From Candidatus Nanoarchaeia archaeon (GTDB lineage: Archaea; Nanobdellota; Nanobdellia; SCGC-AAA011-G17; JAFCDX01), in NCBI GenBank assembly GCA_041651575.1, contig JBAZJB010000001.1, positions 266,609 through 330,608 on the forward strand: a stretch of 64,000 bases of DNA. The letters are read 5' to 3'. Both the position numbers and the translations under genes were made by a program. The notes below the pieces were generated by a model. That model ran no database searches. It saw only the letters and a list, made by a program, of their open reading frames with translations, and was not told the DNA's origin. Of the stretch, positions 20,009-37,478 are shown piece after piece; within the stretch, counting starts at the first letter, position 1, and every line of letters begins with the position of its first letter.

Positions 20009-20038
20009 ATTTAAATAAGATTATTATATTAATAAGAT

Positions 20039-20455: not shown

Positions 20456-20514
20456 TTGCATAATTACCCACCAAAACCTTTATAAATAAGTTTTAAATCA
20501 ATATTTTATTCAAA

Positions 20515-21795
20515 ATGGCAAGAACAAAACCACATATGAACATTGTATTTGTAGGTCATGTAGACCATGGTAAATCAACTACAGTTGGTAGACTATTATA
20601 TGATGCAGGTGGTATACCAGAAACAGAAATGAAAAAGCTTAAAGAAAAAGCTCAAGAATTAGGAAAAGCTGGTTTTGAATTCGCATTCGTTATGGATAAC
20701 TTAAAAGAAGAACAAGAAAGAGGAGTTACCATAGATTTATCACATAAAAAATTTATAACAAACAAATATGAATATACAATTATAGATGCTCCTGGTCACA
20801 GAGATTTCATTAAAAATATGATTACTGGAGCAAGCCAAGCAGATGTTGGTGTTGTTGTAGTAGCAGCTTCCGATGGAATTATGGAACAAACTAAAGAACA
20901 TATTTTCTTATGTAAAACTCTTGGTGTAAATCAATTAGCAATCTTAGTTAATAAAATGGATGTTGTTAATTTTGATGAAACTAAATTCAATGCAGTTAAA
21001 ACCAATGTTACAACTTTATTAAAATCAGTAGGATATAAAACAGAAGAAATTAATTTCATACCAGCAAGTTCATATTTAGGAGAAAATATTGTTAATAGAT
21101 CAACAAAAACTCCTTGGTATAAAGGACCAACATTAAGAGAACAATTAGATTTATTCAAAGAACCAGAAAAACCAACAAACTTACCATTAAGATTACCAAT
21201 TCAAGATGTATATAGTATTCAAGGTATTGGAGTAGTTCCAGTTGGAAGAGTTGAAACAGGAATTATGAAAATAGGAGATAAAGTTACTGTATGCCCAGGA
21301 AGAGAAGGTAAAGGTGTAAATGGAGAAGTAAAATCTATTGAAATGCATCATGAACAAATGACTGAAGCATTACCTGGAGATAATGTAGGATTTAACGTTA
21401 GAGGTATTGAAAAGAAAGATATAGCAAGAGGAGATGTTTTAGGACCTACAAGTAATCCTCCAAGTGTTGTTACAGAATTTACTGCTCAAGTTGTAATATT
21501 AAATCATCCAACAGTATTAACGGTAGGATACACACCAGTATTCCACATTCACACTTCACAAACAGCATGTAAATTTATAGAATTAGTTAAACAAATTAAT
21601 CCTGCAACAGGTGAAACAATAAAAGAACATCCTGATATGTTAAAAAATGGAGACGTAGCAATTGTTAAAATACAACCTACAAAACCTTTGGTAATTGAAA
21701 GACAAAAAGAAATACCACATATGGCAAGATTTGCAATCAGAGATGCAGGTACAACTGTAGCAGCAGGTATGTGCATTGATTTAGTGAAAAAGTGA
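20515..21795 (+). CDS. tuf: translation elongation factor 1-alpha (aEF-1A)
   Basis: 426 aa; [26 protein letters not shown] motifs. Confidence 0.95.
21761..21791 (+). repeat. attL-like direct repeat: last 31 nt of tuf (cagcaggtatgtgcattgatttagtgaaaaa)
   Basis: Identical apart from one transition to 37448..37478. Confidence 0.7.
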
Positions 21796-22069
21796 AATCA
21801 TGGCTTATAAGCCTTAATTCTTTATTATTTTTACATTTTATGTTTTGAAAACTAATGTATCTTGACTGCATGAATGCACTTTTTGAGTTGCTAACATACA
21901 CTTTTATGTTTCTATCAAATTGATTGTTATTGATGTCTATAAGTCTTTTATTGATAAATCTTAATTTTTTCTTTGGAATTAAGAGCATTTCTGCATCTTC
22001 ATATGTTTTGTTTACCTTTCTACACAAAGGTACATTCATTTGGTTAAAATTCATATATTTCATTTTGGA

Positions 22070-22798
22070 TTAAGGCAACGTAAAACTTACGTTTAATTTT
22101 AATTTATTATATATTTCATTTGCTAATTCTAATTTAACCTTTTCAGGATTATGATAATAATCAAATAAAAATGCTATTATAAAATCCATAAAAAATATTC
22201 TTTTAGTATATTCATCAGATTCTTGTTCTATAACTACTTTATTATCTGATAAAATTTTAATTAAAATTTTAAATGAGGAGGGGAATTGAGTTATTTTAAA
22301 AAGTAAATCATAATCTTTTTTTTCAAGTTTAAGAGTAGAATTTAAATTTTTGAATTTAAATTGATTATCTTTAATTTCAATTTTAATATCCCCGACAGAA
22401 TCAGAAATTGCTGAAAGTATTTCTTTATTATTAAAACAATCTTTAAAATAAACGCTATTAACAAAAATTAGAATGTCATCATTTTCTTTAAATTTTTCTG
22501 CTATCTTTATAAAAGGTTCTTTCCCTTCCATAATTATATATTTCCTTGATTTTCCCCTGCCATATTTATCTTCTTTAACTATTCCTATTTTAATAAAGTT
22601 TCTTAAATGATTTTCAATAGGAGTCCTTGATTTATAACTAAAGTTATATTTTTCCGTAAAATATTCTAAAATACCTCCTATTGTAGAAGATTTTTTATTT
22701 ATCAAATGTTCAAGAATAATAAGATTAGATTTTTTCGGAGGTTTTCCTTTTTGTATACTACCATCCCAGTTACAATTTTTTTTATTATTTAATCCCAT
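22070..22798 (-). CDS. hypothetical protein in the element (possible wHTH regulator)
   Basis: 242 aa. Confidence 0.35.
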   Translation of the reverse strand: MGLNNKKNCNWDGSIQKGKPPKKSNLIILEHLINKKSSTIGGILEYFTEKYNFSYKSRTPIENHLRNFIKIGIVKEDKYGRGKSRKYIIMEGKEPFIKIAEKFKENDDILIFVNSVYFKDCFNNKEILSAISDSVGDIKIEIKDNQFKFKNLNSTLKLEKKDYDLLFKITQFPSSFKILIKILSDNKVVIEQESDEYTKRIFFMDFIIAFLFDYYHNPEKVKLELANEIYNKLKLNVSFTLP

Positions 22799-22970
22799 AC
22801 ATATAATCTAACATTAACTAGTATATAAAGTTTACCTTTAATAGGTTACCTATCAAGAGTAATAAATATGATATTTTTTATAAAAAAATGAAGTAACCTT
22901 TTTTATTATAATAAAGATTACTTTTAATAAAAAAATAATTTTATTATATGTGAAATTATAATTTAAACTT

Positions 22971-23147
22971 ATGACCTATATAAAATTAGGAACGCGGAAG
23001 ATTGTGGGAATTAAGAATTCCAGACTAATCACTTTGCCTCAAATTTGGATTCTTGCAAAAGATGTAAAGAAAGGCGATTCTCTTAATATTGAAATGGAAG
23101 AAGGCACCGATAAATTAATTCTGAGCAAAATAAAGGTGATTTCTTAA
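22971..23147 (+). CDS. AbrB/SpoVT/MazE-type swapped-hairpin DNA-binding protein, unannotated short ORF
   Basis: 58 aa read codon by codon: MTYIKLGTRKIVGIKNSRLITLPQIWILAKDVKKGDSLNIEMEEGTDKLILSKIKVIS; typical AbrB pattern. Confidence 0.5.
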   Translation: MTYIKLGTRKIVGIKNSRLITLPQIWILAKDVKKGDSLNIEMEEGTDKLILSKIKVIS

Positions 23148-23151
23148 TAAA

Positions 23152-23418
23152 ATGAATAATATTACCTCAGAAGAACAAACTAATCAATATCTAGTAAAGA
23201 AAGGTATAATATTAGATTCTGGTAAACGGCTTTTGGTACTTTTACAAAGAAAAAATTTAAAACAGTCAGACCTTAGTGCAAAAATTGGTTATTCAAGGCA
23301 ATATATTAATGGGATTATACATAATAGAATAATTCCTTCTACTATTATTAAGAAAAAAATAGTTACTATACTTGAATGTGATACAATTGATATATGGGGT
23401 AATAAAAATGAAGAGTAA
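23152..23418 (+). CDS. XRE-family helix-turn-helix regulator (repressor-like)
   Basis: 88 aa; LKQSDLSAKIGYSRQYINGIIHNR HTH. Confidence 0.6.
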   Translation: MNNITSEEQTNQYLVKKGIILDSGKRLLVLLQRKNLKQSDLSAKIGYSRQYINGIIHNRIIPSTIIKKKIVTILECDTIDIWGNKNEE

Positions 23419-23435
23419 AATAAAACTCTTATTTA

Positions 23436-23487
23436 TTTATATCTATTTATTGATATTTAAATATTTATATCTATTTATTGATATTTA
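23436..23487 (+). repeat. two 24-nt direct repeats (tttatatctatttattgatattta) with 28-nt period, within an AT-rich repeat tract at 23430..23600
   Basis: Read directly; followed by aaataaata x2 and cat/att repeats; candidate operator, iteron or origin of the element. Confidence 0.5.
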
Positions 23488-23603
23488 TTATTCTAATATA
23501 TGTATATTATTTTCTTATTTAAATAAATATTTAAATAAATACCTCTTTAACTTCCTTTTTTTTATTTTATTTATTCATATTCATATTTTGGAATAAATCA
23601 AAA

Positions 23604-23945
23604 ATGGTAAAAAATTCAAGCAAGATTACGAGAACATTTAGTTTAAGTATCGAAGTAGTTAATTTATTAGAAGAAAGTGTAAATGCTGGTTACATTAAAA
23701 ATATGTCTAAATTTATTGAAGATTTAATATTTTCTAATTTGGGGAGCAGAGATTTTATCAAAAGAAAATTAGTTCAAGAAGCAGAATCAATTCGGGAACG
23801 TTTTGAGAGTATTAATTATGAATTCGAATTTAATTTTAATTTAAAAGAAAAAGAACCTAAAACCCTATACGCTCAAAGTTCTAATGTCGAGGACTTAAAA
23901 GAAGAAGTAAAAATTGTGGAGGTAGAAGAAAATGAAAGAAAATGA
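23604..23945 (+). CDS. putative ribbon-helix-helix (CopG/Arc-like) DNA-binding protein
   Basis: 113 aa; N-terminal KITRTFSLSIEVVNLLEE fits a beta-strand-helix RHH fold. Confidence 0.35.
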   Translation: MVKNSSKITRTFSLSIEVVNLLEESVNAGYIKNMSKFIEDLIFSNLGSRDFIKRKLVQEAESIRERFESINYEFEFNFNLKEKEPKTLYAQSSNVEDLKEEVKIVEVEENERK

Positions 23946-24315
23946 AAAAGAAGCACAAAAATTGCTTAATTATTTTATTAACCAATTAAAATTAAACAGT
24001 TGGAATGTGGAATTAAAATTAAAAAAATTAGAAAAAAGTACAACGGGGGAGATTAAATATGATGTAGAAACAAAAGAAGCAACAATAAATATAGATTTTA
24101 CAAATATGAATGAAAAATATAATTTAAGATATACAATTATTCATGAATTATTACATTTAGTTATTAGTGAAGAAATGTTTTCTGCTTCAACAATATTCCA
24201 AGAAGATTTTAAAAGAATGCATAGTAATTTAAGAAATTTTTTAGGTGATAGAACTGAGCAATTGACTCATCGATTTACAAAATTATTATATTCAAAAGAT
24301 AAAGGAGGTGAATAA
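23932..24315 (+). CDS. HExxH metallopeptidase-like protein (ImmA/IrrE-like or SprT-like)
   Basis: 127 aa; IIHELLHLVISEE; partnered with the XRE HTH gene upstream as in ImmR/ImmA modules. Confidence 0.4.
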   Translation: MKENEKEAQKLLNYFINQLKLNSWNVELKLKKLEKSTTGEIKYDVETKEATINIDFTNMNEKYNLRYTIIHELLHLVISEEMFSASTIFQEDFKRMHSNLRNFLGDRTEQLTHRFTKLLYSKDKGGE

Positions 24316-24317
24316 AA

Positions 24318-24488
24318 ATGCAAAAAGAAGAAGCTAAAGCACCAGATTTTGTTGGAAAGGTTCCTATTGCAATATGGAAAAATAAAGACAAAAATGGAAA
24401 AGATTATGTTACACTTAAATTGTTTGGTACAACTTTTAATCTTTGGAAGAATGAACCAAAAATAACAGAAGAAAAAATAGAGGGTTAA
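24318..24488 (+). CDS. small hypothetical protein, unannotated short ORF
   Basis: 56 aa read codon by codon; aggaggtg 8 nt upstream; followed by a gagggtt...aaccctc hairpin. Confidence 0.25.
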   Translation: MQKEEAKAPDFVGKVPIAIWKNKDKNGKDYVTLKLFGTTFNLWKNEPKITEEKIEG

Positions 24489-24549
24489 TAACTAAAAACC
24501 CTCTAAAATATATAAAAATGTAAATGCCACTATATAGTGCCATATTAAA

Positions 24550-24807
24550 ATGGGGAAAAAACATATATACAAAAAATTGATTCAAGAGATATATCTCTTA
24601 TTTAGGGGAGGAGAATTTAGATATTCGGGATTATTGCATTCTTTACCTAGAAGAGGGGTAAATTGGGAGAAAGGTAATGTTCATACTATATTAAACAGAC
24701 TTGTAGATTATGGTATTGTTAAAAAGGTAAAACGTGGAGTATACAAATTAAAAGAAAATAAAATAAGATGGATTATGAATGGATTAAAAAAAGAGGGAAA
24801 ATTATGA
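24550..24807 (+). CDS. small winged-helix-like hypothetical protein
   Basis: 85 aa. Confidence 0.3.
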   Translation: MGKKHIYKKLIQEIYLLFRGGEFRYSGLLHSLPRRGVNWEKGNVHTILNRLVDYGIVKKVKRGVYKLKENKIRWIMNGLKKEGKL

Positions 24808-25502
24808 GATATTATAATATCTATTGGTCTGAGATTTATACAAAGGCGCCAATTGATTTATATAATGTTTGTAGTATTGCAAGGAAAGTAGAAAGAAAAA
24901 TAAAATTTAAAATAAGCAAAGAAGATTTTAAACTTAATCAAAGTTTAGAGTGGGAAATAATAGGGATAGGAGCAGACATCGATATTCTTTTAGGAATAAT
25001 TATTAGCCTCATTCCAGAATTAATAGAAATTCAAAAAGATAATGAAACTAAAGATGAACTTGAAACAAAAAGAGTTATAGAAAAAACAATTGAATTTTAT
25101 ATAGGGCTGATTAAAAGAAGGGTAAATGAGCTTAATGAAGTTAATTCAAAACAAATGGGAGGACTTGCATCTATGTACCATTTAAGGACTTATTTAAACG
25201 AAATGAGTAATATACTTTACAACTTAATTTATTATCCTTTATGTAATGCATCTAAAAAATGTAATATGGATAAGAAAAAATTCTTATATTATTTTTGGAG
25301 TGAGTTGAAAATAAAATTACTTGCATTTGGTTCACCCTATAGTTTTGTATCTAAAAAAGATTCTTTAAAAATATTTGATGATATTTCTTTTGATAATCTT
25401 TATGAACCAAAACTTCAGAAAACAATTTCTGAAAATTCTTCATTAATAAAAAAAGACTTAGATGAATTAAATTCTATGGATATAAAGGATTTATTTAAAT
25501 AA
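24768..25502 (+). CDS. hypothetical protein
   Basis: 244 aa. Confidence 0.35.
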   Translation: MDYEWIKKRGKIMRYYNIYWSEIYTKAPIDLYNVCSIARKVERKIKFKISKEDFKLNQSLEWEIIGIGADIDILLGIIISLIPELIEIQKDNETKDELETKRVIEKTIEFYIGLIKRRVNELNEVNSKQMGGLASMYHLRTYLNEMSNILYNLIYYPLCNASKKCNMDKKKFLYYFWSELKIKLLAFGSPYSFVSKKDSLKIFDDISFDNLYEPKLQKTISENSSLIKKDLDELNSMDIKDLFK

Positions 25503-25547
25503 AATGATTTTAGAAACAATTATAAATAAGAAATTATTTAATAGAAT

Positions 25548-25832
25548 ATGAATAAAACCATAAAATATGCTATTTTTATATCTATGGGAATATTAGTTCT
25601 TTTAGGAGTATTCTTTTTATTCTTTTCAGGTAGAATGTCAAGAGTGTCTTGTAATATTTATGATTATGGTTCCGATAGTAGCTATACTAAAAATATTGTA
25701 TATGAAGATTTAGAAAATATGGATTGTGCTAATTGTAAAGTTTATTGTGAAAACAGATATACTATCTATGGATATCAACAAATTGGTGCAGAAATAGAAA
25801 ATAATAAATGTATATGTTATGTTAAGTATTAA
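25548..25832 (+). CDS. small secreted/membrane Cys-rich protein
   Basis: 94 aa; N-terminal TM; CANCKVYC...CICY. Confidence 0.3.
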   Translation: MNKTIKYAIFISMGILVLLGVFFLFFSGRMSRVSCNIYDYGSDSSYTKNIVYEDLENMDCANCKVYCENRYTIYGYQQIGAEIENNKCICYVKY

Positions 25833-25835
25833 AAA

Positions 25836-26033
25836 ATGAAAAGAAGTACATGTAAATTATTAATAGGTATAGGCATTATTCTTCCAATAATATCGTTGCC
25901 TTTATTTGTAATATCCTTATTTCTTTTTGTGATTGCTATAGCAAAATGGAACTCAGAAACAGAATTTAAGAGTTTAAAACAAAGAGCTAAAGTTCATATT
26001 CATACAAAAGCAAAATATAAAGATTTAGAATGA
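25836..26033 (+). CDS. small membrane protein
   Basis: 65 aa; hydrophobic core. Confidence 0.3.
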   Translation: MKRSTCKLLIGIGIILPIISLPLFVISLFLFVIAIAKWNSETEFKSLKQRAKVHIHTKAKYKDLE

Positions 26034-26305
26034 AAAAAATTAAAGTTGTTAATTTTAGTTTAGGTAAGAATAAAGTTTCTATAGAAAGATTAACAAAATT
26101 ATTTAGTGAAAATTTAGTAATAAAAGTAAATAATAAACAAATTATAAAAGAACCTACACATCGAACAGGAACAAAAAAATTTAATTTTGAAGCAGGTGAA
26201 GATAAAGTTATGATAGATATTGTATTACCTTATTTTCCTGCTAAAAATCAATATGAATGTAAAGTTTGGGTTAATGGAAAAATAAAAGATATTTATTATT
26301 TATAA
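26030..26305 (+). CDS. hypothetical protein
   Basis: 91 aa; start overlaps the previous stop. Confidence 0.3.
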   Translation: MKKIKVVNFSLGKNKVSIERLTKLFSENLVIKVNNKQIIKEPTHRTGTKKFNFEAGEDKVMIDIVLPYFPAKNQYECKVWVNGKIKDIYYL

Positions 26306-26306
26306 A

Positions 26307-26648
26307 ATGGTTTCAAGAGATATTACAATATTAAATCAAAAGATATTAATAATTTCTATAGTAGTATCTGTTTTATTATCTCAATTCGCAAATTTATTAG
26401 CTTCGCAGATGTTTTTAGATTTTTATACTAAAACTACCTTCGCTAAATTGTTTTTAATTCTTATTTATATTTTAAGTATGTTATTTCTTTGTGTTTTTTT
26501 TATAGCCGGTTTATTTTGGATATTTAATATTAAATTTAAATATATGGAATTTAAAAGATTAAAAAAAGGTTTATTTTATTGTGGTTTAATCCTATTGATA
26601 TTAATTATGGTTGGTATAATTAAATGGATATTTCTTTTAACTCATTAA
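26307..26648 (+). CDS. small multi-pass membrane protein
   Basis: 113 aa. Confidence 0.3.
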   Translation: MVSRDITILNQKILIISIVVSVLLSQFANLLASQMFLDFYTKTTFAKLFLILIYILSMLFLCVFFIAGLFWIFNIKFKYMEFKRLKKGLFYCGLILLILIMVGIIKWIFLLTH

Positions 26649-26686
26649 CTCTTCTTATTATAGTAACGGAAGAAGTATTAAATTCC

Positions 26687-27040
26687 TTAGTTTAAATATT
26701 CTTTCTTTATAAATTTCATTAAATCCGGTCTAATTCTAACAATTAGCACCTTTTCTTTGATAAGATTATAAGCTTCATCAAAATTCATTCCATTTTTAAT
26801 TAAATAAACTAATGCAACAGCATTACTTCTGCTCATCCCCCCAATGCAAATAATAACAGCTTTCTTCTTTTTCTTGATTATATTTTCAACATGCCTAACT
26901 TTAGATTGGAATTGCCCTTTATTAATTTGTTTTCCATCTATCAAATCTCTAACTATCTCAATCTCTACATTCTTCAATTTCTTTATTTTCTCAAATTCCC
27001 TTAATGGAGCTGTTCCTAGATTTTTTGTTATCCAATACAT
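26687..27040 (-). CDS. dual-specificity / protein-tyrosine phosphatase (CX5R)
   Basis: 117 aa; VIICIGGMSRSNAVALVYL is the HCxxGxxRS P-loop. Confidence 0.6.
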   Translation of the reverse strand: MYWITKNLGTAPLREFEKIKKLKNVEIEIVRDLIDGKQINKGQFQSKVRHVENIIKKKKKAVIICIGGMSRSNAVALVYLIKNGMNFDEAYNLIKEKVLIVRIRPDLMKFIKKEYLN

Positions 27041-27399
27041 TTTAGCCTACCTCGCTGTTTAACTATATTTAAATGTTTTTAATATTAAATTTTAGTATAT
27101 GAATCTTTATATAGCTTAAAAATACAATTTATAAGTGATTTAAGATGAAAGATATTAAAAATTATGAAAATATGAGCAAGTTTAAGAAAGACCTTACAGA
27201 ATTGATACTTAGAGCAGATAAAGAAAACCTTGAAAAATTAAGAGAAGCATATCCTGAACTTGTAAAAGAATTGAGAAATTAAATTATAAGTAATATTTAA
27301 TTAAAGCAACAATAGAACATAAAATTAGGAAAATTGAACCTACTATAACAAACCATCTATCTGTAAACCTTTCTGGAATTGAATATCCTTTAAAGAATT

Positions 27400-27633
27400 T
27401 CATTTTTTATCTTCTATTTTTAATTTTATATAAAAGGCAAGTAATAAAATGATTATGACTATAAGGGCATCTTCTAGTAAACTTTTTATAAATGGACTTA
27501 TTATTTTTAGAAACATAGCATTTTCTCCATTCATCCAAAAATCTATTTTAGAAATAATTAAGATTACCCCCAAGATTATTATAAAATCTATTAAATGTTC
27601 CTTAAACCAATTCCAATCTACTTCTAATTCCAT
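27400..27633 (-). CDS. small membrane protein
   Basis: 77 aa; two hydrophobic helices. Confidence 0.25.
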   Translation of the reverse strand: MELEVDWNWFKEHLIDFIIILGVILIISKIDFWMNGENAMFLKIISPFIKSLLEDALIVIIILLLAFYIKLKIEDKK

Positions 27634-27638
27634 TTTAT

Positions 27639-28493
27639 TTAAATATTAAAAATAACATCTTTAAATGTTTTTGCCTTATCTTCTTTTTGTTCTTGACAAA
27701 AAAATATATTAAATGGTTTATTTCTACTCTCATTTTTAGATTCTCTAAAATTGCTTATGAATATATTCATTAAATCCATTAAGTCTAAACATAAATTATA
27801 AAGTTCATTAAAATTATAATCTGAAAAATTTTCATAAACTATAAGACTCATGATATGGGGGTCTTTTTTTAATGATTTTGAATTATAATAAAATAGAATT
27901 TTAGAATTTTTATATACTTTATTTCCTACCTCAAAGTCTCCAGCATCTTCAAATCTTATTCTAAATCCATGTTTATAGGAATTATAAGCTTCCCTATGTT
28001 TTGTATATTCTTCTTTAATTCTTTCTAAACTTTCTTTTAAATTCATATAAGATAATTCTAATACTCCTTTAGCTTTATCGCATTGTTTATTATGGGCTGG
28101 GTAACATAAAAGTTTATTTAAACTATTATCATCTAAAGATAAGGTATCATAAAAAGATAAAACATCGTCTACTTTAAATGTATTATAATTTTGTGCAAAT
28201 TTAAACATATCATCATCTTTACTTGATACAAGTCCACCAAAATCTTCGGCTAATTTACAAAATTTTATTAGTATCTCTATAAATAATTGTCTTTTAATTA
28301 TTGACGGGTCATCATTTGGAAATATATCTTTTGTATTATCAAAACTTTTTTTTATTACCATTAAAGGAATTATAAGTTTACATGGATTTTGATGGTCCCA
28401 GAATACCTCAGAAAATACTTTGTTTAATTCACTTTCTTTTAAATTAAGTTTATCAAGTAATTCTTTTTTATATTTTGTAAGTTCTTTGCTCAT
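27639..28493 (-). CDS. hypothetical protein
   Basis: 284 aa. Confidence 0.35.
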   Translation of the reverse strand: MSKELTKYKKELLDKLNLKESELNKVFSEVFWDHQNPCKLIIPLMVIKKSFDNTKDIFPNDDPSIIKRQLFIEILIKFCKLAEDFGGLVSSKDDDMFKFAQNYNTFKVDDVLSFYDTLSLDDNSLNKLLCYPAHNKQCDKAKGVLELSYMNLKESLERIKEEYTKHREAYNSYKHGFRIRFEDAGDFEVGNKVYKNSKILFYYNSKSLKKDPHIMSLIVYENFSDYNFNELYNLCLDLMDLMNIFISNFRESKNESRNKPFNIFFCQEQKEDKAKTFKDVIFNI

Positions 28494-28682
28494 TTCTTTT
28501 TAACCAGTTTTTCCTTTTAAAGAATTTCTAATATAAAAAGGTTCGTTTTTAGTCTATTAAAAAATAGGTCTTTTCTTTATAAATAAGTAAGATACTCCTT
28601 TTTAACAAACTAAATAAATAGGAAGATTTATAAAAAGGTAAATATATACCCCAATATATAGGTTGATGGGGTTAGTTAATTA

Positions 28683-29282: not shown

Positions 29283-31498
29283 AATTATATAATTATTTAA
29301 TATTAATATTTTTATCTTTATTTATAATATCTACTTTTGTATATGCCTTATCTGAATCTTTTTTAATAGAACAAAGCGGGGATAAATTTAATTTAGGTCA
29401 AACTATTTATGGTTTAACGGGTGGAATTAGTGATACTTACCTTCCAATTTTACTTGCAAATCAAGTTTGGGTAGATAGTCAAGGAATAAATACTGGAACT
29501 TATAATTATCAACAATTTTTAGATTTCTATGCGGTAACTAATGTTAGTACAGGAAAAGGTACTGCTGGTTATGTATATCAACAAGACTCAAATAGAGATA
29601 ATAAACCTGTAGATGATTACCTATTTTTTGATAACATCGATACTTATCAAAAATGGGTGTCCTATTGGAATGGGACTGCTGTGGTATCTGGTTATATAAA
29701 TTATACTTCTTACGCATTTGCATGGAATTATACCTTAGATATACTTGGTTCTGAAGTAAAGGTAAAAGATGCATCCGATATTGAAGGTACGGTTTTAACT
29801 ATTTTAGGAACAAATTATACCATTGCAGATGCTACTGTCAGTAATACATCATATGGTATGCTTGATAAGTTAATTTTACTTGGAGGAAATGAAATCATCA
29901 TCTTTGAGGGAGAAACTAAAAATGGAGTTACTGTTACAGGCGTTGATGTTGCTGAAACAAAATGTATAATTCAATATGATAGTACACCTTATATTATAAA
30001 TTTAGGGGAAATTCAAACAATGCCAGACGGTTTAATGATTGGGGTTTTAGACGTGACGTATATGGGAGCAGGTTTAGATATTTGTGAATTAGCTCTCGGA
30101 GCAAAGAAAATTATATTAGAACAAAATAAAGAAGTAGAAGTTAATGGAATTAGAATAGTTAATACTACTGTTAGTTTGAATGATGGAACAACAGGATTTA
30201 ATCAATTATCTATAGTTTATATTCCTACTAACAAAACATATTTGAAAGCAGGAGAATCTTTGAAAGACCCAGTTTTTAATGCATTTGCAATAACTTTAGA
30301 TAAAATTGTTGAATCCACAGAAGAAATTAAAATAGACCCACAAGGAGATAAAGTAAAATTAACTGTTAAAAATAAATTGGGAAATCCACTTAATAATTTT
30401 ACCATATGTCATTTAAATGGAACAAAAGTTTCAGGTGCAAGAAGTTTTGTATGGGGGGATGTTAATAATCCGTTTATTGCTTGGGAAGGTGCCGGGGTAA
30501 ATATTACTAATAATACTATGAATGTAGCAAGATTAGACCAAATGACGGGAATTAGATTCTTAGCAGAAGGGAATAAAGAATCACATATTTATGAAATTAT
30601 AAACATAGATACTTCCGCAAACGAAACAGATATTAAAGAACTTGATACAGGATACATTTATTATAATCTTCCTTATTATGAAGGGCGAGTTACAACTTTT
30701 AGTGATATAAACTATAATATACAATTAGCTTTTGACCAAGATACAAGTACCAAAATGCAATGGATTAATTTTACACATCTTTCAGATGCATATGGTATGA
30801 ACTATTGGACAAAGAATGGTGGAAATATTACTTTTGGTAATACTTCTTCTATGTTAAATCAAAATGCAAATGCTGTTGATAATTGTTCAATTAAATTTGG
30901 TGAAGTTGATGTATCCAAAGAATCAGGAATTCATTTAAAACTTTTGAACTTTACTTTCTTATGGGATTCAACAGACGATGAAATTGAATTTGCAAAATAT
31001 TCTGTTGATGGTTCAGCACAAAGTAAAATTGGCTCAGGTTATTTTGTTCAAAAATATAATAATGATAGTTACACAAAAACCACAAGAACCGAATATGGTA
31101 CTAAAGTTGATATAAATCTAAAGAACGATGGTGAAGCAATAATCTACTATCCAGATGAAGCTACATATGCAGAAGTTAAAATATATGCTTTAGAAAATCC
31201 TCTAACTCCAATTGGCGGTAGCGGGGGGGGCGGTGGTGGTTCGGGTGTAGTTGAATTAATAAAATCTACAAATAAAACTGGAGTTAATGCAATTTCTCTT
31301 CCTCCAAATACAGGATTAGTAAATGCTGAAGATATTTGTGATAGTATAACTTATTCAGATGCTGTAACAAAATGGGACCCTTATACTCAAATGTATAGTG
31401 GACATCCTTGTGGAACACCTGTTAATAATTTTAATTTAGAATATGCTGTTGGGTATTTTGTAAGTATTACTCAAAATTCAACATGGAGTTTACAATGA
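29279..31498 (+). CDS. large secreted surface (glyco)protein with poly-Gly linker and shared C-terminal domain
   Basis: 739 aa; signal peptide; many N-x-S/T sequons; GGSGGGGGGSG linker; C-terminal domain shared with ORF 31483. Confidence 0.5.
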   Translation: MKLYNYLILIFLSLFIISTFVYALSESFLIEQSGDKFNLGQTIYGLTGGISDTYLPILLANQVWVDSQGINTGTYNYQQFLDFYAVTNVSTGKGTAGYVYQQDSNRDNKPVDDYLFFDNIDTYQKWVSYWNGTAVVSGYINYTSYAFAWNYTLDILGSEVKVKDASDIEGTVLTILGTNYTIADATVSNTSYGMLDKLILLGGNEIIIFEGETKNGVTVTGVDVAETKCIIQYDSTPYIINLGEIQTMPDGLMIGVLDVTYMGAGLDICELALGAKKIILEQNKEVEVNGIRIVNTTVSLNDGTTGFNQLSIVYIPTNKTYLKAGESLKDPVFNAFAITLDKIVESTEEIKIDPQGDKVKLTVKNKLGNPLNNFTICHLNGTKVSGARSFVWGDVNNPFIAWEGAGVNITNNTMNVARLDQMTGIRFLAEGNKESHIYEIINIDTSANETDIKELDTGYIYYNLPYYEGRVTTFSDINYNIQLAFDQDTSTKMQWINFTHLSDAYGMNYWTKNGGNITFGNTSSMLNQNANAVDNCSIKFGEVDVSKESGIHLKLLNFTFLWDSTDDEIEFAKYSVDGSAQSKIGSGYFVQKYNNDSYTKTTRTEYGTKVDINLKNDGEAIIYYPDEATYAEVKIYALENPLTPIGGSGGGGGGSGVVELIKSTNKTGVNAISLPPNTGLVNAEDICDSITYSDAVTKWDPYTQMYSGHPCGTPVNNFNLEYAVGYFVSITQNSTWSLQ
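31223..31230 (+). repeat. G8 homopolymer within the Gly-linker coding region of ORF 29279..31498
   Basis: gcggggggggcgg read directly; genome is about 30% GC, so this run is conspicuous. Confidence 0.8.
31364..31435 (+). repeat. 72-bp perfect direct repeat (copy A) shared by surface-protein genes 29279 and 31483
   Basis: Identical to 31987..32058 (gtaacaaaatgggaccc...aataattttaat). Confidence 0.85.
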
Positions 31499-32121
31499 AA
31501 AATAAAATAAAAATCATTCAAATTTTTTGTTTGTTAATGTTATTAAGTTTACCTCTTATATCAGCAGGTACGCCTCACATTAATTGGGGTTATGTAAATG
31601 ATGCTGTAGATGGAACATTAGCAAATGGGGCTAATGTTACGGCTTATATAGAAACAAGACCTACAGAAATATTAACAGATATTGTAGGAGTTACTGGTAA
31701 TTCTGGAATATCAAATGCTTGGTTAATTGATACTGGTAATTTTCCAACTGCTTGGTCAGCAGGGAATAACTTAATAATACAAATTGATAAAAATGGTTAC
31801 AAATCAAACACAAATATAATATTAGATAACTCTGGCTCTCAACAAAGTGTTAATATGACTCTTTCAAAAATTTTAATATTAGTTAAACCTATCAATAAAA
31901 CTGGAGTTAATGCTATATCTTTATTATGGAATAGCCAATTAATTACTGCCCAGGATATTTGTAATGATGTTCAATATTCAGATGCAGTAACAAAATGGGA
32001 CCCTTATACTCAAATGTATAGTGGACATCCTTGTGGAACACCTGTTAATAATTTTAATATAGAAAAGGGAGTAGCTTATTTTGTAAGTGTTACTCAAAAT
32101 TCAACTTGGGTGATGAAATAA
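31483..32121 (+). CDS. secreted protein made of the shared N-domain plus the shared C-domain (minimal family member)
   Basis: 212 aa; N-domain AGTPHINWGY...AYIETRPTEILTD...NFPTAWSAGNNLII; C-domain NKTGVNAISL...TKWDPYTQMYSGHPCGTPVNNFN. Confidence 0.5.
   Translation: MEFTMKNKIKIIQIFCLLMLLSLPLISAGTPHINWGYVNDAVDGTLANGANVTAYIETRPTEILTDIVGVTGNSGISNAWLIDTGNFPTAWSAGNNLIIQIDKNGYKSNTNIILDNSGSQQSVNMTLSKILILVKPINKTGVNAISLLWNSQLITAQDICNDVQYSDAVTKWDPYTQMYSGHPCGTPVNNFNIEKGVAYFVSVTQNSTWVMK
31987..32058 (+). repeat. 72-bp perfect direct repeat (copy B)
   Basis: See copy A. Confidence 0.85.
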
Positions 32122-32141
32122 AAAGAGTTATATATTATTAA

Positions 32142-34832
32142 ATGGACAATATAAAAATGAAAAATAAATTTAAAATAGGATTTTTATCAATTCTCTTAGT
32201 TTTATCTTTAATCTCGGTTAGTAATTTGGTTTCAGCAGGAACACCACATACAGTGTATGGATATGTATTTGATGCTACTGACGGAACATTAGCAAATGGA
32301 GCTACTATTACAGCGTATATTGAATCAAGACCTTCTGAGACATTAACTGGTACAGTGGATGCAACAAATTGGTGGGATATTGATGTAGGTAATTTTCCAA
32401 CTGCTTGGTCAGCAGGAAATAATTTAATAATTAAAGTTGATAAAAGTGGGCATAAAGATACTACAAATATAATTCTTGATACAAGCGGTGCACAACAAGC
32501 TTATGATATGACTTTACTTCCACAATACGATTTAGATTTATCACCAACTACTCAAACGATTAATACGGTTCCAGGAGTAAATTATTATGAATATTATATT
32601 AATATAACTAATATGGGATATGCAAATGATACTTTTCTTGTATATTTGAATGGAGAATATCAGTATACAACTGATGTACTTCCTTCTTATTGGTATACAG
32701 AAGATATGTGGTATTCTAATACTACAGACACTTTAGCAGGTACATATATAGATAATATAACGGTAGTATCTCAACATGATTCAACTAAAAGAAAAACTTT
32801 TTTACTTACAATAATTGTTAATCCAATATATGGCATAGATTTATCTCCAAAAACACAAAGTATTAGTGTATATCAAGGAACAGATTTTGAAGTTAGTTAT
32901 AATGTTACTAATATTGGGAATATAAATGATACTTATTTAGTTTACTTAAATGGAAAATATAATTATAGTATTGATGAACTTCCTTCTTATTGGTCTTCAG
33001 AAGAGTTTTGGGATTATACTGCAGATGAACCTATAGGAACAGTATATACAGACCTATTTTTTGTAATATCAGAACATAATCCAAATGTAAATGATACTTT
33101 TGCATTAACTGTAACAGTTATTGCTCCTCCCTGTGTTCCTAATTGGATTTTAAATTCTACTTGGACAACCTGTAATCTACTTGATTCACAATCTAAAAAT
33201 TATTATGATTCAAATAGTTGTGGAAATGAAACAGGAAAGCCTACAGATATAACACAATCATGTGATTTTTGTACTCCTAATATAATTGCTATAGCACCCG
33301 GAAGCTGTTCAATAAATGATACAGCTACCACAATTTTTGATGACTCAAATAATTGTTATGCTCAAACTGGATTGGAAAGCGACCAAGTTCCAAATCCAAT
33401 TGTAAATTCTTGTGACTATTGTACTCCTTCCATAAGTTCAAGTAATTCAACTTGTGGAACAAATGATTTATTCACAGAAACATTTACAGATTCAAATGGT
33501 TGTTATGCTCAAACAGGACTTATTTTAGATAATGTTCCTTTATCACTACAATATACTTGTGATTATTGTACTCCAAATATCCAAACCACAACAGAAAACT
33601 GTACTACAAGTGATACTTACACTACCACATTCACAGATTTAAATGGTTGTTTTGGTGTAACTGGATTAGTTTTAGACGCTGTTTCTGTACCAACAATAAA
33701 TTCATGTGATTATTGTACTCCATTAATAACCTCCACTAATTCAACATGTCAACCAAATAATACTTCAACAGAAACATTTACAGATTCAAATGGTTGTTAT
33801 GGTTTAACAAATTTAAACGCGGATAAAATTCCAAATCCAATAATATATGGTTGTGTTTATGTAGCCCCTTCTTGTTCTCCCGATAATTGGACATTAAATA
33901 CCACTTGGTCAAGTTGTAATGCAAATGATTTACAATACCAAGTTTATTATGACCCAGATAATTGTAATAATAACACAGGAAAACCTACCGATGTAAGTCA
34001 AGCTTGTGATTTTTGTACTCCAAGTATATTTGATACAAATTCTACTTGTCAATTAAATGATTTATTTACACAATCATTCTCCGATAATAATAATTGTTTT
34101 GCTCAAACAAGTCTTGTAGCAGACAAAGTTCCAAATAGTAATAGTTATTCTTGTGATTATTGTACTCCTTTAGTTGTATTAACAAATTCAAGTTGTAGTA
34201 TTAATGATACCTTTACAGAAAGTTTTACAGATTCAAATGGTTGTTATGCTCAAACAAATTTGGCTTCAGATATAGTAATACCTGCTCCAACATTATATGC
34301 TTGTGATTTCTGTAATCCCTCATTAACATCCACTAATTCAACATGTCAACCAACCAATACTTTAACAGAAATCTTTGCAGATTCAAATGGGTGTTTTGCA
34401 TTAACTAATTTAGTTTCTGATGATATCTTTATTCCTAATCAAATAGTATATAATTGTACTTATGTTGCTCCAGTAACTTCTTCTGGTGGCGGAGGAGGCG
34501 GTGGTGGAGGCGGAGGTTCAGGTAAACCAACCTGTGTTGAAAAAGATTATAATTTCACAGATTGGTCAGAATGTTTAGTAGATGGAAAATCAACAAGAAC
34601 TTATATTTTGAATAATAAAAAATGTATTAAAAATACAAAAACATATGATGTAACTTTATACTTAGAAAAAGATTGTTATTATAAGGAAGAAAAACCAGTA
34701 CAAGAATCAATAGAAGAAGATAGTGGTATGACTGGAATTACTGGTGGGGCAGTTGTAGATGGAAATGGTTTATTTAGTTCAATAGGAGATTTCTTCTCAG
34801 GTATTTGGAATTGGTTTAAAAATTTATTTTAA
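32142..34832 (+). CDS. giant secreted surface protein: shared N-domain, duplicated ~100-aa domain, about 12 tandem Cys-rich ~45-aa repeats (CDYCTP...), poly-Gly linker
   Basis: 896 aa; repeat units SCDYCTP(S/N)I...NSTC...FTDSNGCYAQT(G/N)L; linker SSGGGGGGGGGGGSG. Confidence 0.5.
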   Translation: MDNIKMKNKFKIGFLSILLVLSLISVSNLVSAGTPHTVYGYVFDATDGTLANGATITAYIESRPSETLTGTVDATNWWDIDVGNFPTAWSAGNNLIIKVDKSGHKDTTNIILDTSGAQQAYDMTLLPQYDLDLSPTTQTINTVPGVNYYEYYINITNMGYANDTFLVYLNGEYQYTTDVLPSYWYTEDMWYSNTTDTLAGTYIDNITVVSQHDSTKRKTFLLTIIVNPIYGIDLSPKTQSISVYQGTDFEVSYNVTNIGNINDTYLVYLNGKYNYSIDELPSYWSSEEFWDYTADEPIGTVYTDLFFVISEHNPNVNDTFALTVTVIAPPCVPNWILNSTWTTCNLLDSQSKNYYDSNSCGNETGKPTDITQSCDFCTPNIIAIAPGSCSINDTATTIFDDSNNCYAQTGLESDQVPNPIVNSCDYCTPSISSSNSTCGTNDLFTETFTDSNGCYAQTGLILDNVPLSLQYTCDYCTPNIQTTTENCTTSDTYTTTFTDLNGCFGVTGLVLDAVSVPTINSCDYCTPLITSTNSTCQPNNTSTETFTDSNGCYGLTNLNADKIPNPIIYGCVYVAPSCSPDNWTLNTTWSSCNANDLQYQVYYDPDNCNNNTGKPTDVSQACDFCTPSIFDTNSTCQLNDLFTQSFSDNNNCFAQTSLVADKVPNSNSYSCDYCTPLVVLTNSSCSINDTFTESFTDSNGCYAQTNLASDIVIPAPTLYACDFCNPSLTSTNSTCQPTNTLTEIFADSNGCFALTNLVSDDIFIPNQIVYNCTYVAPVTSSGGGGGGGGGGGSGKPTCVEKDYNFTDWSECLVDGKSTRTYILNNKKCIKNTKTYDVTLYLEKDCYYKEEKPVQESIEEDSGMTGITGGAVVDGNGLFSSIGDFFSGIWNWFKNLF

Positions 34833-35157
34833 AAATACTAATTAAATTATTTGTAATTTCTTTAATAAGTTTATTTAATTGTATTCATTCTTCATATCTT
34901 TATTATAATAGGATTCAGAAAAAACAATAAAATAACCTATTTATTTTCTCTATCAATCTTTTCTCTTATAGCTCCTAAAACAAATTCTGCTCTTGACCTA
35001 TATCCTTTCTTACTCTTTTTCCAGGTTTTATCAATTTCATTGATTAACTCTGAAGGAACACTAACATTTACATAATTTTTTCTCATACTGTATATGTACC
35101 AAAACATTTATATAGCCCTTTTTGTTACCCATACCGTATAGAAAAAGAGGTTAGAAA

Positions 35158-35520
35158 ATGAAAATTAAATTAATAATCGGATTACTTATAATTTCTATAT
35201 TTTTAATAAGTGGATGTAATCAAGAAAATATTAATCCTGCTCCCTTGAATTGGCAAGAATTATTAGATAATTGTCAAAAAAATTTAGATGAATGTAAAAT
35301 GCTTGGAATTCCAAAAATAACAGAATTTACTATTAATACTGAAGATTTAATAGGAAAAAAAATTGACTTTGATATATGTAAAATAGAATGGGTGAAACAA
35401 AACCCAGATTTACCTTTACCTAGTCAATGTTCTATTCAAGTTTGGGGGAACCAATTTCAAAAAAATCCAGATAAATTAATAAATTTAAAAGTTTTTTGTG
35501 ATTGTTGGTATAAAGAATGA
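35158..35520 (+). CDS. small lipoprotein (LISGC lipobox-like)
   Basis: 120 aa. Confidence 0.4.
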   Translation: MKIKLIIGLLIISIFLISGCNQENINPAPLNWQELLDNCQKNLDECKMLGIPKITEFTINTEDLIGKKIDFDICKIEWVKQNPDLPLPSQCSIQVWGNQFQKNPDKLINLKVFCDCWYKE

Positions 35521-36260
35521 AAATGAAAATAATATTGGGGACATTAGTACTTTGTTTATTTCTTATAAGTGGATGTAATAATGGAATAATTTGTAACAAA
35601 CCTTATATTCAAGTAGGAACTGAGTGTTGTTTAGACCAAAATAGTAATTCTATTTGTGATAAAGATGAACCAGAAAAAAATGAAGAAAAGAATTATTCTA
35701 CAATAAATTCTGGTATAATATTACCAGAAGGAAAATGTATTATTAAAGGTTCAGTTGCTCCTACTGTTATAGATGTAACCTGCACCCAAAATAGTGATTG
35801 TTACGAATCTGCTCGAGGTATAGGCACTACTGATATGAGTTTAGTTTATTGTTCTGGAGCCACACAATCAGAAGGAATACAAACTTTTAAAGAATGTAAA
35901 GAGTATGATAAAGAAAAAGGTTTATGGACAGGAACAGTGTTATGTAAAGATAAACAAGATTGTTATGATTTCTATCAAAAAGTGAACCAATATTATAGTG
36001 ATGTTCCAATTCCAGAAACAATGGATTGTAAAGAGACATCATTTAAAAAACTTCCTGATACAAACAATAATTTTATAAGTTGTAATACTAACATAGATTG
36101 TATTGAAAAAATTATGCCTGGAATTAATTCACCAGAAATACCCTCAGAATTACGTTCTTTATATTTAGAATATTATGGTATAAGATGTAATAATAATTTT
36201 TGTGAAGTAAATGAAGGACTCTTTACTCAGTGGGGAAGTAGTTTTGTTAGTAAAATATAA
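35517..36260 (+). CDS. Cys-rich lipoprotein, paralog of chromosomal 12829..13383
   Basis: 247 aa; LISGCNNGIICNKPYIQVGTECCLDQNSNSICDKD. Confidence 0.45.
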   Translation: MKMKIILGTLVLCLFLISGCNNGIICNKPYIQVGTECCLDQNSNSICDKDEPEKNEEKNYSTINSGIILPEGKCIIKGSVAPTVIDVTCTQNSDCYESARGIGTTDMSLVYCSGATQSEGIQTFKECKEYDKEKGLWTGTVLCKDKQDCYDFYQKVNQYYSDVPIPETMDCKETSFKKLPDTNNNFISCNTNIDCIEKIMPGINSPEIPSELRSLYLEYYGIRCNNNFCEVNEGLFTQWGSSFVSKI

Positions 36261-36285
36261 TCTTTCCATTTTTATAATTTAAAGA

Positions 36286-36936
36286 TTAAATAAAAATTTT
36301 ATCTAACTCCACTTTTTCTTTTTCTATACCAATATGCGTATAAATTTGTGTAGCCCTGTTATCTGTATGCCCAAGCATTTTTCCAATAGCCAATAAGTCC
36401 ATACCTTTATTATAAAGATATGTTGCATACGTATGTCTTAATGTATGGAACCTATAATTGAATACTTTTCTGCCCTTACTATCAAATCCGATTGAGGTTC
36501 TTATACCTGCCTTTTCTAAATGACTATTAAATTTTTTTCTCATCACAGAAATGTTATATTGTTTATCTAATCTCAAACGCATAGGGAATAGATATTTACT
36601 ACCTCCTATATACTGCAACCATTTATCCAAAAGTGGAATTAATGGTTTTGGTATTGCTACATTTCTATCTTTACCATATCCTTGAACAGACCTATTTGGA
36701 TTTTTAGAATCTTTTATAGATAAAACTCGATTATATATATCGATGTCTTCTACTTTTAATTTACATAATTCTCCAATTCTTAATCCACAAAAAAACCCTA
36801 ATAAATAAGCCATCATATAAAGAGGTTCATTTACCACCCCAAATAATCTTTTTAATTCTCTTATTTCAAATACTTTTGGTAGTTTATATGGTGATTTCGC
36901 TTTGTCTCCTCTAAACATTTTCGTCAAGCCTCCCAA
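36286..36936 (-). CDS. int: tyrosine recombinase/integrase, catalytic domain
   Basis: 216 aa; GLRIGEL (Arg), HTLRHTYAT (HxxR), TQIYTH (Tyr nucleophile). Confidence 0.7.
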   Translation of the reverse strand: MGGLTKMFRGDKAKSPYKLPKVFEIRELKRLFGVVNEPLYMMAYLLGFFCGLRIGELCKLKVEDIDIYNRVLSIKDSKNPNRSVQGYGKDRNVAIPKPLIPLLDKWLQYIGGSKYLFPMRLRLDKQYNISVMRKKFNSHLEKAGIRTSIGFDSKGRKVFNYRFHTLRHTYATYLYNKGMDLLAIGKMLGHTDNRATQIYTHIGIEKEKVELDKIFI

Positions 36937-37327
36937 TTAATTTTCTTCCCATTTCAAGAATTTCTAAACCCAAACAAGCTTTTTCTCTTTTGAGAACATT
37001 AGCATTTAACATTTTAGCCCGTTTTGGACTTAGCATTTTGTTCTTTATTTTTTCTTTATAATGCTCTGGAATTAATGTAGTATCCAAATAGTTGAATGCT
37101 GTTATTGGACTTATTCCAAATTTTTCCATACCTTCTTTGATTTTCTTCTCTATTTCTGCTAGTTCATATTTGTAATATTTCTGGTTCCTTATCCTCGATA
37201 AATGATACATTATGGTCTTAGTAGATAGCTCTAATTGCGTTATTGTCCTAACCACCAACCTAACGTATTCCGCCTTGAAAAAGACGTCTGTATTCTTCTC
37301 TAATGCCATTTTTCCTATTATATCCAT
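36911..37327 (-). CDS. int: integrase N-terminal (SAM-like/core-binding) domain in a different frame from the catalytic part (frameshifted or split integrase)
   Basis: 138 aa; 26-nt overlap with the catalytic ORF; one indel would fuse them into a ~345-aa integrase. Confidence 0.4.
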   Translation of the reverse strand: MDIIGKMALEKNTDVFFKAEYVRLVVRTITQLELSTKTIMYHLSRIRNQKYYKYELAEIEKKIKEGMEKFGISPITAFNYLDTTLIPEHYKEKIKNKMLSPKRAKMLNANVLKREKACLGLEILEMGRKLIGRLDENV

Positions 37328-37447
37328 CTTAAGTACCTCCTATATTTTAATTTAGATGTCAGAAAAAGGGTTACCCCAAAACTGAAAAAAATAGGTAAAA
37401 AGTACCCAAATAATATAAATTTGGATTTAAATTTTGGTAGTGAGCTC

Positions 37448-37478
37448 AGCAGGTATGTGCATTGATCTAGTGAAAAAA
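37448..37478 (+). repeat. attR-like direct repeat: duplicated tuf 3' end, still encoding ...[11 protein letters not shown]-stop
   Basis: 30/31 identity to 21761..21791; reading frame conserved with synonymous substitutions (tta->cta, aag->aaa) and its own stop. Confidence 0.7.

Follow-up and report, generated by a model that had tools for sequence, protein, structure and literature searches.

A probable 15.7-kb tyrosine-recombinase integrative element at the 3′-end of tuf in a Nanoarchaeia archaeon

Integration at the 3′-end of protein genes is known in archaea. Among 68 integrated thaumarchaeal elements, 14 are located at such ends, with reconstitution of the target open reading frame (ORF) (PMC6563490). 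In one documented thaumarchaeal case the stop codon is derived from the element, and the gene of elongation factor 2 (EF-2) is the favourite target of casposons (PMC6563490). Most such thaumarchaeal elements are 'cryptic integrated elements' without hallmark genes (PMC6563490). Here we describe a DNA stretch of 64,000 nucleotides (the window) from Candidatus Nanoarchaeia archaeon (GCA_041651575.1, contig JBAZJB010000001.1, positions 266,609 to 330,608). In this window, the 3′-end of tuf, the gene of archaeal elongation factor 1α (EF-1α), very probably carries a tyrosine-recombinase integrative element of 15.7 kb (21792–37477). A preliminary description of this DNA had held that archaeal integrative elements target tRNA genes and that integration into an essential protein gene of a DPANN-like genome appeared undescribed. 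In view of the thaumarchaeal elements, this framing is overstated. No report of archaeal EF-1α as an attachment site was found in the literature covered, to which the DPANN mobilome study of Wu et al. 2024 (Nat Microbiol) did not belong. The integration strategy itself is textbook, and the surprise for a specialist is moderate.

The window element resembles NitEve-E2 (Krupovic et al. 2019, PMC6563490), an archaeal tyrosine-recombinase element with an attachment site (att) that extends into the 3′-end of a protein gene. In both cases, integration rebuilds the ORF and brings in a stop codon from the element, and a related genome with an unoccupied site confirms the location. The differences from NitEve-E2 are the DPANN host (Woesearchaeota/Nanoarchaeia), the tuf target, the att length (31–39 bp, compared with 13 bp), and the integrase (Int), which consists of the catalytic domain only and is accompanied by a conserved partner encoded in a gene of its own. 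Family 1 casposons of Thaumarchaeota, located at the 3′-end of the EF-2 gene, also target an essential translational GTPase gene without inactivating it. Casposons use the Cas1 casposase, terminal inverted repeats, a target-site duplication, and PolB, whereas the window element has a tyrosine recombinase and attL and attR sites with crossover polarity.

The restoration of a target by a gene fragment carried on attP is a standard strategy of integrative elements, including those at protein-gene 3′-ends (Mageeney et al. 2020, PMC7192596). The bacterial elements that use this attP fragment strategy share with the window element the target-gene fragment in attP and the conserved housekeeping gene as attB; they differ in their bacterial hosts. 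The TIGER/Islander supplement (PMC7192596) includes a bacterial island under the name Ere1.8.tuf. Its target is bacterial tuf (EF-Tu) by label, and no sequence relationship of these bacterial elements to the window element was found. The tRNA-targeting proviruses and plasmids of archaea, such as the pleolipovirus SNJ2 and the fusellovirus SSV1, are likewise temperate, with a tyrosine integrase, flanking direct repeats, and a comparable size. Woesearchaeales are reported to harbour integrated tailed proviruses, which were detected by means of integrase and tRNA markers (PMC11705971). In contrast to SNJ2, SSV1, and these tailed proviruses, the window element has a protein-gene target and shares no capsid, terminase, Rep-Arvir, or other genes with them. 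Little is known of the mobile elements of DPANN archaea, and provirus screens based on integrase and tRNA genes (e.g., PMC11705971) would miss the window element.

Repeat, empty site, and predicted crossover at the tuf 3′-end

The tuf gene (20515–21795, + strand) is intact and encodes a 426-aa protein with the Pfam domains GTP_EFTU, D2, D3, and eEF1A_C (E 1e-57 to 1e-28). Its nearest relatives are found in metagenome-assembled genomes (MAGs) of Woesearchaeota/Nanoarchaeia. A direct repeat is located at the tuf end (21761–21791) and at 37447–37477, with 30 of 31 positions identical and one mismatch (T/C). The preliminary description had given the same identity but had placed the right copy one base off, at 37448–37478. 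The 31-mer at the tuf end is CAGCAGGTATGTGCATTGATTTAGTGAAAAA. If the flanks are included, its length is 39 nt (90% identity), and the start-to-start spacing is 15,686 nt (repeat finder, family D14). Two matches of the 31-mer were obtained in 0 of 100 dinucleotide-preserving shuffles of the window.

The first copy comprises the last 10 codons of tuf (GCA GGT ATG TGC ATT GAT TTA GTG AAA AAG TGA). The second copy reads TCA GCA GGT ATG TGC ATT GAT CTA GTG AAA AAA TAA in the same frame. The two copies differ at three codons (TTA>CTA, AAG>AAA, and TGA>TAA), and all three changes are synonymous. The codons, read directly, agree with the preliminary description, which had reported an in-frame second copy with only synonymous changes.

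A scan with the EF-1α protein over one genome per GTDB species gave 80 loci. The best relative was L007 (Nanoarchaeia STD1_207), with an EF-1α protein that is 96% identical to that of the window and has the same length and C-terminus. Integration thus leaves the target intact, as the 426-aa ORF matches its orthologues in length and C-terminus. The L007 DNA is 94.5% identical to the window through tuf to position 21798 and 98.75% identical again from 37938 through the gene of ribosomal protein S10 and the rRNA operon. The 15.7 kb is absent from L007, where ORF164 (− strand) begins 9 nt past the tuf stop codon and is followed by S10 and the rRNA genes. The left boundary of the empty site is at 21798, attR corresponds to L007 7247–7287, and the position of the repeat coincides exactly with the empty-site boundary. 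An empty site in a related genome was the check set by the preliminary description, and L007 provides it. The empty site in L007 supports the insertion of a 15.7-kb element. The preliminary description had also stated that the insertion breaks the adjacency of tuf and S10. This adjacency was already interrupted in the lineage, since ORF164 (− strand) lies between the two genes in the empty-site L007.

The attL site extends from 21761 to 21799 (+ strand; core 21761–21791) and the attR site from 37447 to 37487 (+ strand; core 37447–37477). The attB-like sequence of L007 reads ...GAT TTA GTA AAG AAA TAA ATTCTTTTTTT. The attL sequence reads ...GAT TTA GTG AAA AAG TGA AATCATGG, in which AATCATGG is the element-specific flank. 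The attR sequence reads ...GAT CTA GTG AAA AAA TAA ATTCTT, followed by AAAAAA, and its TAA and ATTCTT are native in L007. To the left of TAGTGAAAAA (21782–21791, + strand, equal to 37468–37477 in attR), attL has the host-type T at 21781, as in L007, and attR has the element-type C at the equivalent position 37467. To the right of TAGTGAAAAA, attR has the host stop codon and flank (AAA TAA ATTCTT), and attL has different ones, the element-type AAG TGA AATC from 21792. This mismatch polarity among attL, attR, and L007 is the one expected of a reciprocal exchange between attP and attB within the 10-bp TAGTGAAAAA, the putative strand-exchange segment. The pattern of a reciprocal crossover was obtained with a single outgroup, L007.

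We infer that the second copy of the repeat is the displaced native tuf end and that the element supplies a new end. The preliminary description had read the two copies in the same way. What certainly comes from the element is less of tuf than it had implied: only the third position of the terminal Lys codon, the stop codon, and the 3′ flank. The tuf 3′ flank supplied by the element (21803–21836, + strand) reads as the palindrome GGCTTATAAGCC followed by a T-rich tract. The palindrome and T-rich tract may replace the native oligo-T terminator of tuf. A scan for bacterial-type promoters and terminators found no terminator here and is uninformative for an archaeon.

Both junctions were assembled alike in the 766-kb NCBI contig, a 315-kb ENA MEGAHIT contig, and the Logan contigs L088 (attL) and L092 (attR). 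The source runs include SRR8542065. An assembler-specific chimera is excluded by the agreement of the three assemblies. The G+C content (21–31% in the region, against about 26–28%) does not set the element sharply apart. The locus offers a clean att system in a Woesearchaeota-like genome, with base-exact attB, attL, and attR, a crossover within 10 bp, and an empty-site relative. The conserved 3′-end of the EF-1α gene can serve as an archaeal integration target, beside tRNA genes and thaumarchaeal EF-2.

Integrase module and other users of the tuf end

The tyrosine integrase gene int (36286–36918, − strand) encodes a protein of 210 aa from its ATG that consists of the catalytic domain only (PF00589, E 7e-27). 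Int aligns with residues 95–270 of the 292-residue XerC-like chain 4a8e_A and with IntI4. The aligned stretches include GLR, GKDR, HTLRH, GH, and IYTH, so the conserved active-site stretches are present, and the usual N-terminal domain is missing. The Tyr of IYTH is the predicted nucleophile. The identical protein has an NCBI record, annotated as a tyrosine-type recombinase/integrase, which belongs to a 766-kb contig of a Candidatus Nanoarchaeia MAG. Int does not belong to a host XerA/dif system. It scored 94 bits against the NCBIfam XerA cutoff of 220 and covered only model positions 87–259, and int sits in DNA that is absent from L007. An integrase of the SSV type, which is split by integration, was also rejected, because int is one intact ORF and the att site lies outside it, 120 bp beyond the partner gene.

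The partner gene, ORF138 (36911–37327, − strand), has a stop codon that overlaps the int start codon (ATGTTTAG), and the module begins 120 bp from attR. The AlphaFold model of ORF138 is confident (pLDDT 88) and all-helical, with a weak resemblance to ParB/KorB helix-turn-helix (HTH) proteins. Full-length ORF138 homologues (22–29% identity) are located directly upstream of int homologues in L001, L004/L099, L098, L101, and L097. ORF138 and int are a conserved two-gene module. A frameshifted integrase pseudogene does not account for ORF138, which lies in another frame, has full-length homologues next to int homologues elsewhere, and overlaps int by the stop/start sequence. We infer that ORF138 is probably a DNA-binding accessory subunit or a directionality factor. 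The domain-truncated recombinase with its small helical partner poses a concrete biochemical question. Both this conserved pair and the tuf specificity at the level of a lineage are worth follow-up.

Pairs of an ORF138-like gene and a catalytic-domain-only recombinase gene were found on Woesearchaeota contigs at L001:9380–10750, L004:7185–8394, L098:10001–11222, and L101:969–1918. These pairs are often at contig ends and adjoin HNH, NikA-like, or TctA-like genes. The four distant modules were rejected as tuf-targeting, as their loci showed neither a tuf-like peptide nor a long direct repeat. A profile search of metagenome contigs with ORF138 gave 0 matches.

A profile of ORF138 led to L097, a 1.1-kb Logan contig from another sequencing run (SRR33785072). 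L097 encodes P0130, which is 83% identical to ORF138, and an Int fragment that is 74% identical to Int. Its nucleotide identity to window 36777–37477 is approximately 83%. At the position of attR, L097 has GCTCAGCTGGAATGTGTATTGACTTAGTGAAGA, where the contig stops. Compared with the window core, L097 has six substitutions (GCA>GCT, GGT>GGA, TGC>TGT, GAT>GAC, CTA>TTA, and AAA>AAG), all of which preserve the peptide AGMCIDLVK. The tuf ends of two Woesearchaeota loci (L063 and L072) differ from the L097 sequence at 2 of 30 positions, and the tuf 3′-ends of distant Woesearchaeota differ from the att sequences by 2–5 nt in 30. There is no intrinsic reason for an att arm to keep a reading frame, so the L097 pattern fits an attP that tracks the tuf of its own host. 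The synonymous-only differences and the near match to Woesearchaeota tuf ends indicate that tuf targeting is a heritable property of the element lineage and not a one-off event. The preliminary description had taken the stretch as an element integrated at the tuf 3′-end. The empty site in L007, the att polarity, and the second tuf-like att site in L097 all support that reading.

In most of the 80 species loci, S10 is located within approximately 200 bp of tuf. No integrase-bearing insert downstream of tuf was found in any of the 80 loci, for which up to 6 kb of downstream DNA was available. Each locus was also searched for a second copy of its tuf end, in the DNA with up to 7 mismatches allowed over 33 nt and in the encoded peptides, and one further case, L018, was found. 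In L018 (CAYIFT010000041.1, a Woesearchaeota MAG; 3986–5275), the tuf 3′-end is present as a perfect 67-bp direct repeat on either side of 1,156 bp between tuf and S10. The genes of this insert are those of a GNAT acetyltransferase and a DUF5615/DUF433 toxin-antitoxin pair, without an integrase. It was rejected as a relative of the window element, since the arms are unrelated. Counting the window element and the unrelated L018 insert, at least two different DNAs have made use of the tuf end; occupancy is rare among the sampled loci. The loci L012 and L014, with no S10 within 6 kb of tuf, were rejected as occupied sites, as they carry housekeeping-type genes and have no integrase or tuf-end repeat.

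We propose the following course of integration. The element would have entered by site-specific recombination catalysed by its own catalytic-domain-only Int, which probably works with the co-transcribed 138-aa helical DNA-binding partner. The attP site would carry a 31–39-bp imitation of the last ten EF-1α codons and the stop codon, and attB would be the true tuf 3′-end. Strand exchange would take place within the 10-bp segment. The attL product comprises native tuf up to the crossover, followed by AAG TGA, the palindrome, and the T-rich tract of the element. The EF-1α protein sequence is thus unchanged, with a new stop codon and 3′ flank. The attR product joins the tuf-like arm of the element to the native AAA TAA ATTCTT tail. 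The choice of tuf may be related to the near invariance of this stretch in Woesearchaeota DNA. Like a tRNA gene, such a target would be always present, slow to change, and restorable. The element may be mobile at present.

Cargo genes and nature of the element

The regulatory genes are at the left end of the element. ORF242 (22070–22798, − strand) adjoins attL, is divergent from the regulator operon, and has no match in Pfam, PHROGs, PADLOC, or NCBIfam. The regulator block (22971–24315, + strand) encodes a putative AbrB/MazE-like protein (58 aa), an XRE HTH protein (88 aa), ORF113, and a putative HExxH metallopeptidase (127 aa). The XRE protein matches HTH_3 (E 4e-7) and a PHROG transcriptional repressor (E 4e-7). 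The matches of the peptidase are weak (SprT-like, E 4e-4; capP, E 4e-5) and below the curated thresholds, and its HELLH motif is present. The AbrB/MazE-like match (E 2e-3) is also below the cutoff. The XRE repressor and the ImmA/CapP-like protease may act as a maintenance or induction switch. The ImmR/ImmA and CapH/CapP switches likewise combine genes for an XRE HTH protein and a small HExxH peptidase in one operon-like block; here the peptidase match is weak, in contrast to those systems, and an extra ORF lies between the two genes.

The next block (24318–26648, + strand) contains, according to the translations, ORF56, an 85-aa ORF that is winged-HTH-like, ORF244, and four small ORFs, three of them strongly hydrophobic. 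ORF244 has 232 aa from its second ATG and 8 distant homologues in 1.84 billion representatives, none with a Pfam domain. It was rejected as a replication initiator (Rep) because its few homologues are remote and domain-free. The dual-specificity phosphatase gene (26687–27040, − strand) encodes 117 aa with the CX5R motif CIGGMSR. Its match to Pfam DSPc (E 3.9e-10) scores 40.1 bits, above the cutoff of 33.5. The following block (27400–28493, − strand) contains the hydrophobic ORF77 and ORF284. In its model (pLDDT 70), ORF284 forms a bundle of helices, for which the structural neighbours are weak and HEPN-like. Three ORF284 homologues were found in 5.8 billion clusters, adjoining Mrr-like, STAND-ATPase, and DUF2254 genes. 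ORF284 may be defence-type cargo. Its YxxK-like motif had made it a candidate Rep (Rep-Arvir/DUF7845), which was rejected because there was no Pfam support, the fold is a generic helical bundle, and the neighbours in other contigs are defence-like.

Four secreted or surface proteins of 199, 739, 212, and 896 aa are encoded at 28683–34832 (+ strand). They share N- and C-terminal modules (internal paralogy 40–70%) and, by inspection, have signal-peptide-like N-termini, with a C-terminal anchor in one of them. In the family and phage searches, none of the four proteins gave a match. The 896-aa protein contains approximately ten tandem Cys-rich repeats of 147 nt (49 aa; CDYCTP...TDSNGCYAQT) at window 33140–34420. 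Poly-Gly linkers occur in both large surface proteins, and the Logan assembly breaks in the repeat region. The last cargo block (34937–36260) encodes a putative ribbon-helix-helix (RHH)-like regulator of 56 aa (− strand; HicB-like, E 8e-3 only) and two lipoproteins of 120 and 247 aa with the lipobox LISGC (+ strand). The gene list of the preliminary description holds for the tyrosine integrase, the XRE-HTH protein, and the dual-specificity phosphatase; its HExxH peptidase, AbrB, and RHH genes correspond to weak matches. The surface proteins carried as cargo raise the possibility that elements of this kind shuttle attachment functions in symbionts with tiny genomes.

Pfam, PHROGs, NCBIfam, and PADLOC searches agreed with the preliminary description, which had recognised no capsid, terminase, or replication genes. 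As there is no recognisable hallmark of a virus, plasmid, or conjugation system, the term 'cryptic integrated element' is appropriate. An integrative conjugative element or integrated plasmid was rejected because no VirB4/HerA/TraG-type ATPase, relaxase, or replication initiator was found in Pfam, NCBIfam, and PADLOC searches. A casposon was rejected because there are no Cas1 or PolB domains and no terminal inverted repeats among the top inverted pairs. No relatives of Int, ORF138, ORF284, or the 739-aa protein were found in GenBank phages and IMG/VR. In IMG/VR, these proteins, the core DNA, and a degenerate GMCIDLVKK-stop pattern together gave only two chance matches, within unrelated phage genes.

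Several results weigh against the proposed integrative mobile element. No families for capsid, portal, terminase, nucleoside triphosphatase (NTPase), Rep, primase, helicase, or conjugation were detected in the four databases, so that autonomy of the element is hypothetical. For the same population, neither a circular or attP form nor an excised attB allele was found. The pattern of the attP/attR arm gave 0 matches in JGI metagenome contigs, the integrated form included. The three assemblies are 100% identical and probably derive from the same reads, and so do not provide independent biological replication. The empty site is known from one relative only. Finally, the 449-bp ORF133 segment next to attR is also missing from L007, which a single integration does not explain.

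The stretch may instead be a non-autonomous or decaying genomic island. It would have integrated once via Int, would now be helper-dependent or immobile, and would carry surface-protein and defence-like cargo. This is a real possibility, although we lean against it. The searches detected neither replication nor transfer genes, the element was seen in its integrated state only, the ORF284 relatives stand in defence-like neighbourhoods, and L018 is a tuf-end insert that persists without an integrase. On the other side, int and its partner are intact and conserved in comparison with L097. The coding density of the element is high, with no obvious pseudogenes, and the att copies differ only where attP/attB heterology predicts. 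Such confined differences make the insertion look recent.

The ORF133 segment (37488–37936, + strand) lies outside the att pair and encodes 130 aa from its ATG, with no family match. It is bracketed by the octamer AAATTCTT, which is the same as the sequence after the native tuf stop codon. The real insertion could be a composite of approximately 16.1 kb (21792–37936), in which ORF133 is the remnant of an earlier occupant, left by tandem use of attB, or a part of the element. We consider a composite possible but doubtful. It would account for the absence of 37488–37936 from L007 and for the bracketing octamers, and tandem att reuse is documented for archaeal elements (PMC6563490). However, there is no recognisable tuf-like sequence before the second AAATTCTT (approximately 12 of 18 positions match by eye) and there are no inverted repeats around the segment, and a simple deletion between the octamers in the lineage of L007 would account for the observations just as well. 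A miniature inverted-repeat transposable element was rejected for want of convincing inverted repeats. The segment may go back to an older occupant of the site, to a small insertion of its own, or to ancestral DNA that L007 lost by deletion between the octamers.

Spindle-shaped and pleomorphic archaeal viruses are known to be without hallmarks that sequence methods detect, and small hydrophobic capsid proteins can escape such methods. Background on pleolipoviruses is given in PMC13107129. The element could be a provirus of a non-tailed, membrane-containing archaeal virus of the spindle-shaped or pleomorphic type. Its hydrophobic proteins would be capsid or membrane proteins, and the Cys-rich, sequon-rich secreted proteins would be spikes or adhesins. 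The 15.7-kb size, the integrase at one end, the XRE repressor module, the several hydrophobic ORFs of 65–113 aa, and the block of four signal-peptide proteins, one of them C-terminally anchored, would fit such a provirus. We nevertheless regard a provirus as unlikely. No PHROG, Pfam, or NCBIfam match to virion proteins, NTPase, or Rep (DUF7845/Rep-Arvir included) was obtained, and Int, ORF138, ORF284, and the 739-aa protein have no relatives in IMG/VR and GenBank phages. Surface proteins and lipoproteins would be just as typical of cargo of cellular origin.

Quite unlikely, and proposed tentatively, is a larger scheme in which the window element and L097 represent a new DPANN-specific temperate lineage, possibly of enveloped viruses, with tuf homing across Woesearchaeota, a two-component recombinase, and adhesin-like cassettes. 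We speculate that in such a lineage a separately encoded ParB-HTH-like subunit would stand in for the N-terminal domain of Int, and that the surface cassettes could alter the attachment of the episymbiont to its host.

It is highly improbable that the repeat is a partial tuf duplication or assembly artefact on either side of ordinary variable host DNA: short repeats are common in AT-rich genomes and the G+C contrast is weak, but the shuffles, the exact position at the empty-site boundary, the integrase module 120 bp from one copy, the same tuf-like stretch in the diverged L097 element, and the agreement of three assemblers on both junctions all speak for an integrative element at tuf.

Neighbouring host loci

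The gene order in the window is EF-2 (17825–20008), a small ORF, EF-1α, the 15.7-kb stretch, ORF133, ORF164 (− strand), S10, 16S, 23S, and RNase P RNA. ORF164 (− strand) and the S10 gene (+ strand; Pfam E 1e-27) are host genes at 37949–38839, within the DNA that is 98.75% identical to L007 from 37938. ORF164 (37949–38443) is host DNA that is 98.8% identical in L007, with a weak HYExAFE-family match and a nuclease-like D...DxK pattern. A homologue is located downstream of S10 in L030. The rRNA operon (39161–44243) contains 16S–23S followed directly by RNase P RNA (43920–44243), and 5S rRNA was not detected in the window.

The spacer between EF-2 and tuf (window 20009–20514, compared with L007:3783–5951) contains one 138-aa ORF in the window and three unrelated ORFs (129, 315, and 232 aa) in L007. 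These ORFs have no Pfam match, and the spacer is a second variable spot in the gene cluster. Upstream of EF-2, window 12829–17663 contains seven ORFs, one of which has a Pfam match (PhageMetallopep PF18894, 15305–15658, E 2e-13). There is no alignment to L007 upstream of 17643, and 12829–17663 may be another variable or mobile island.

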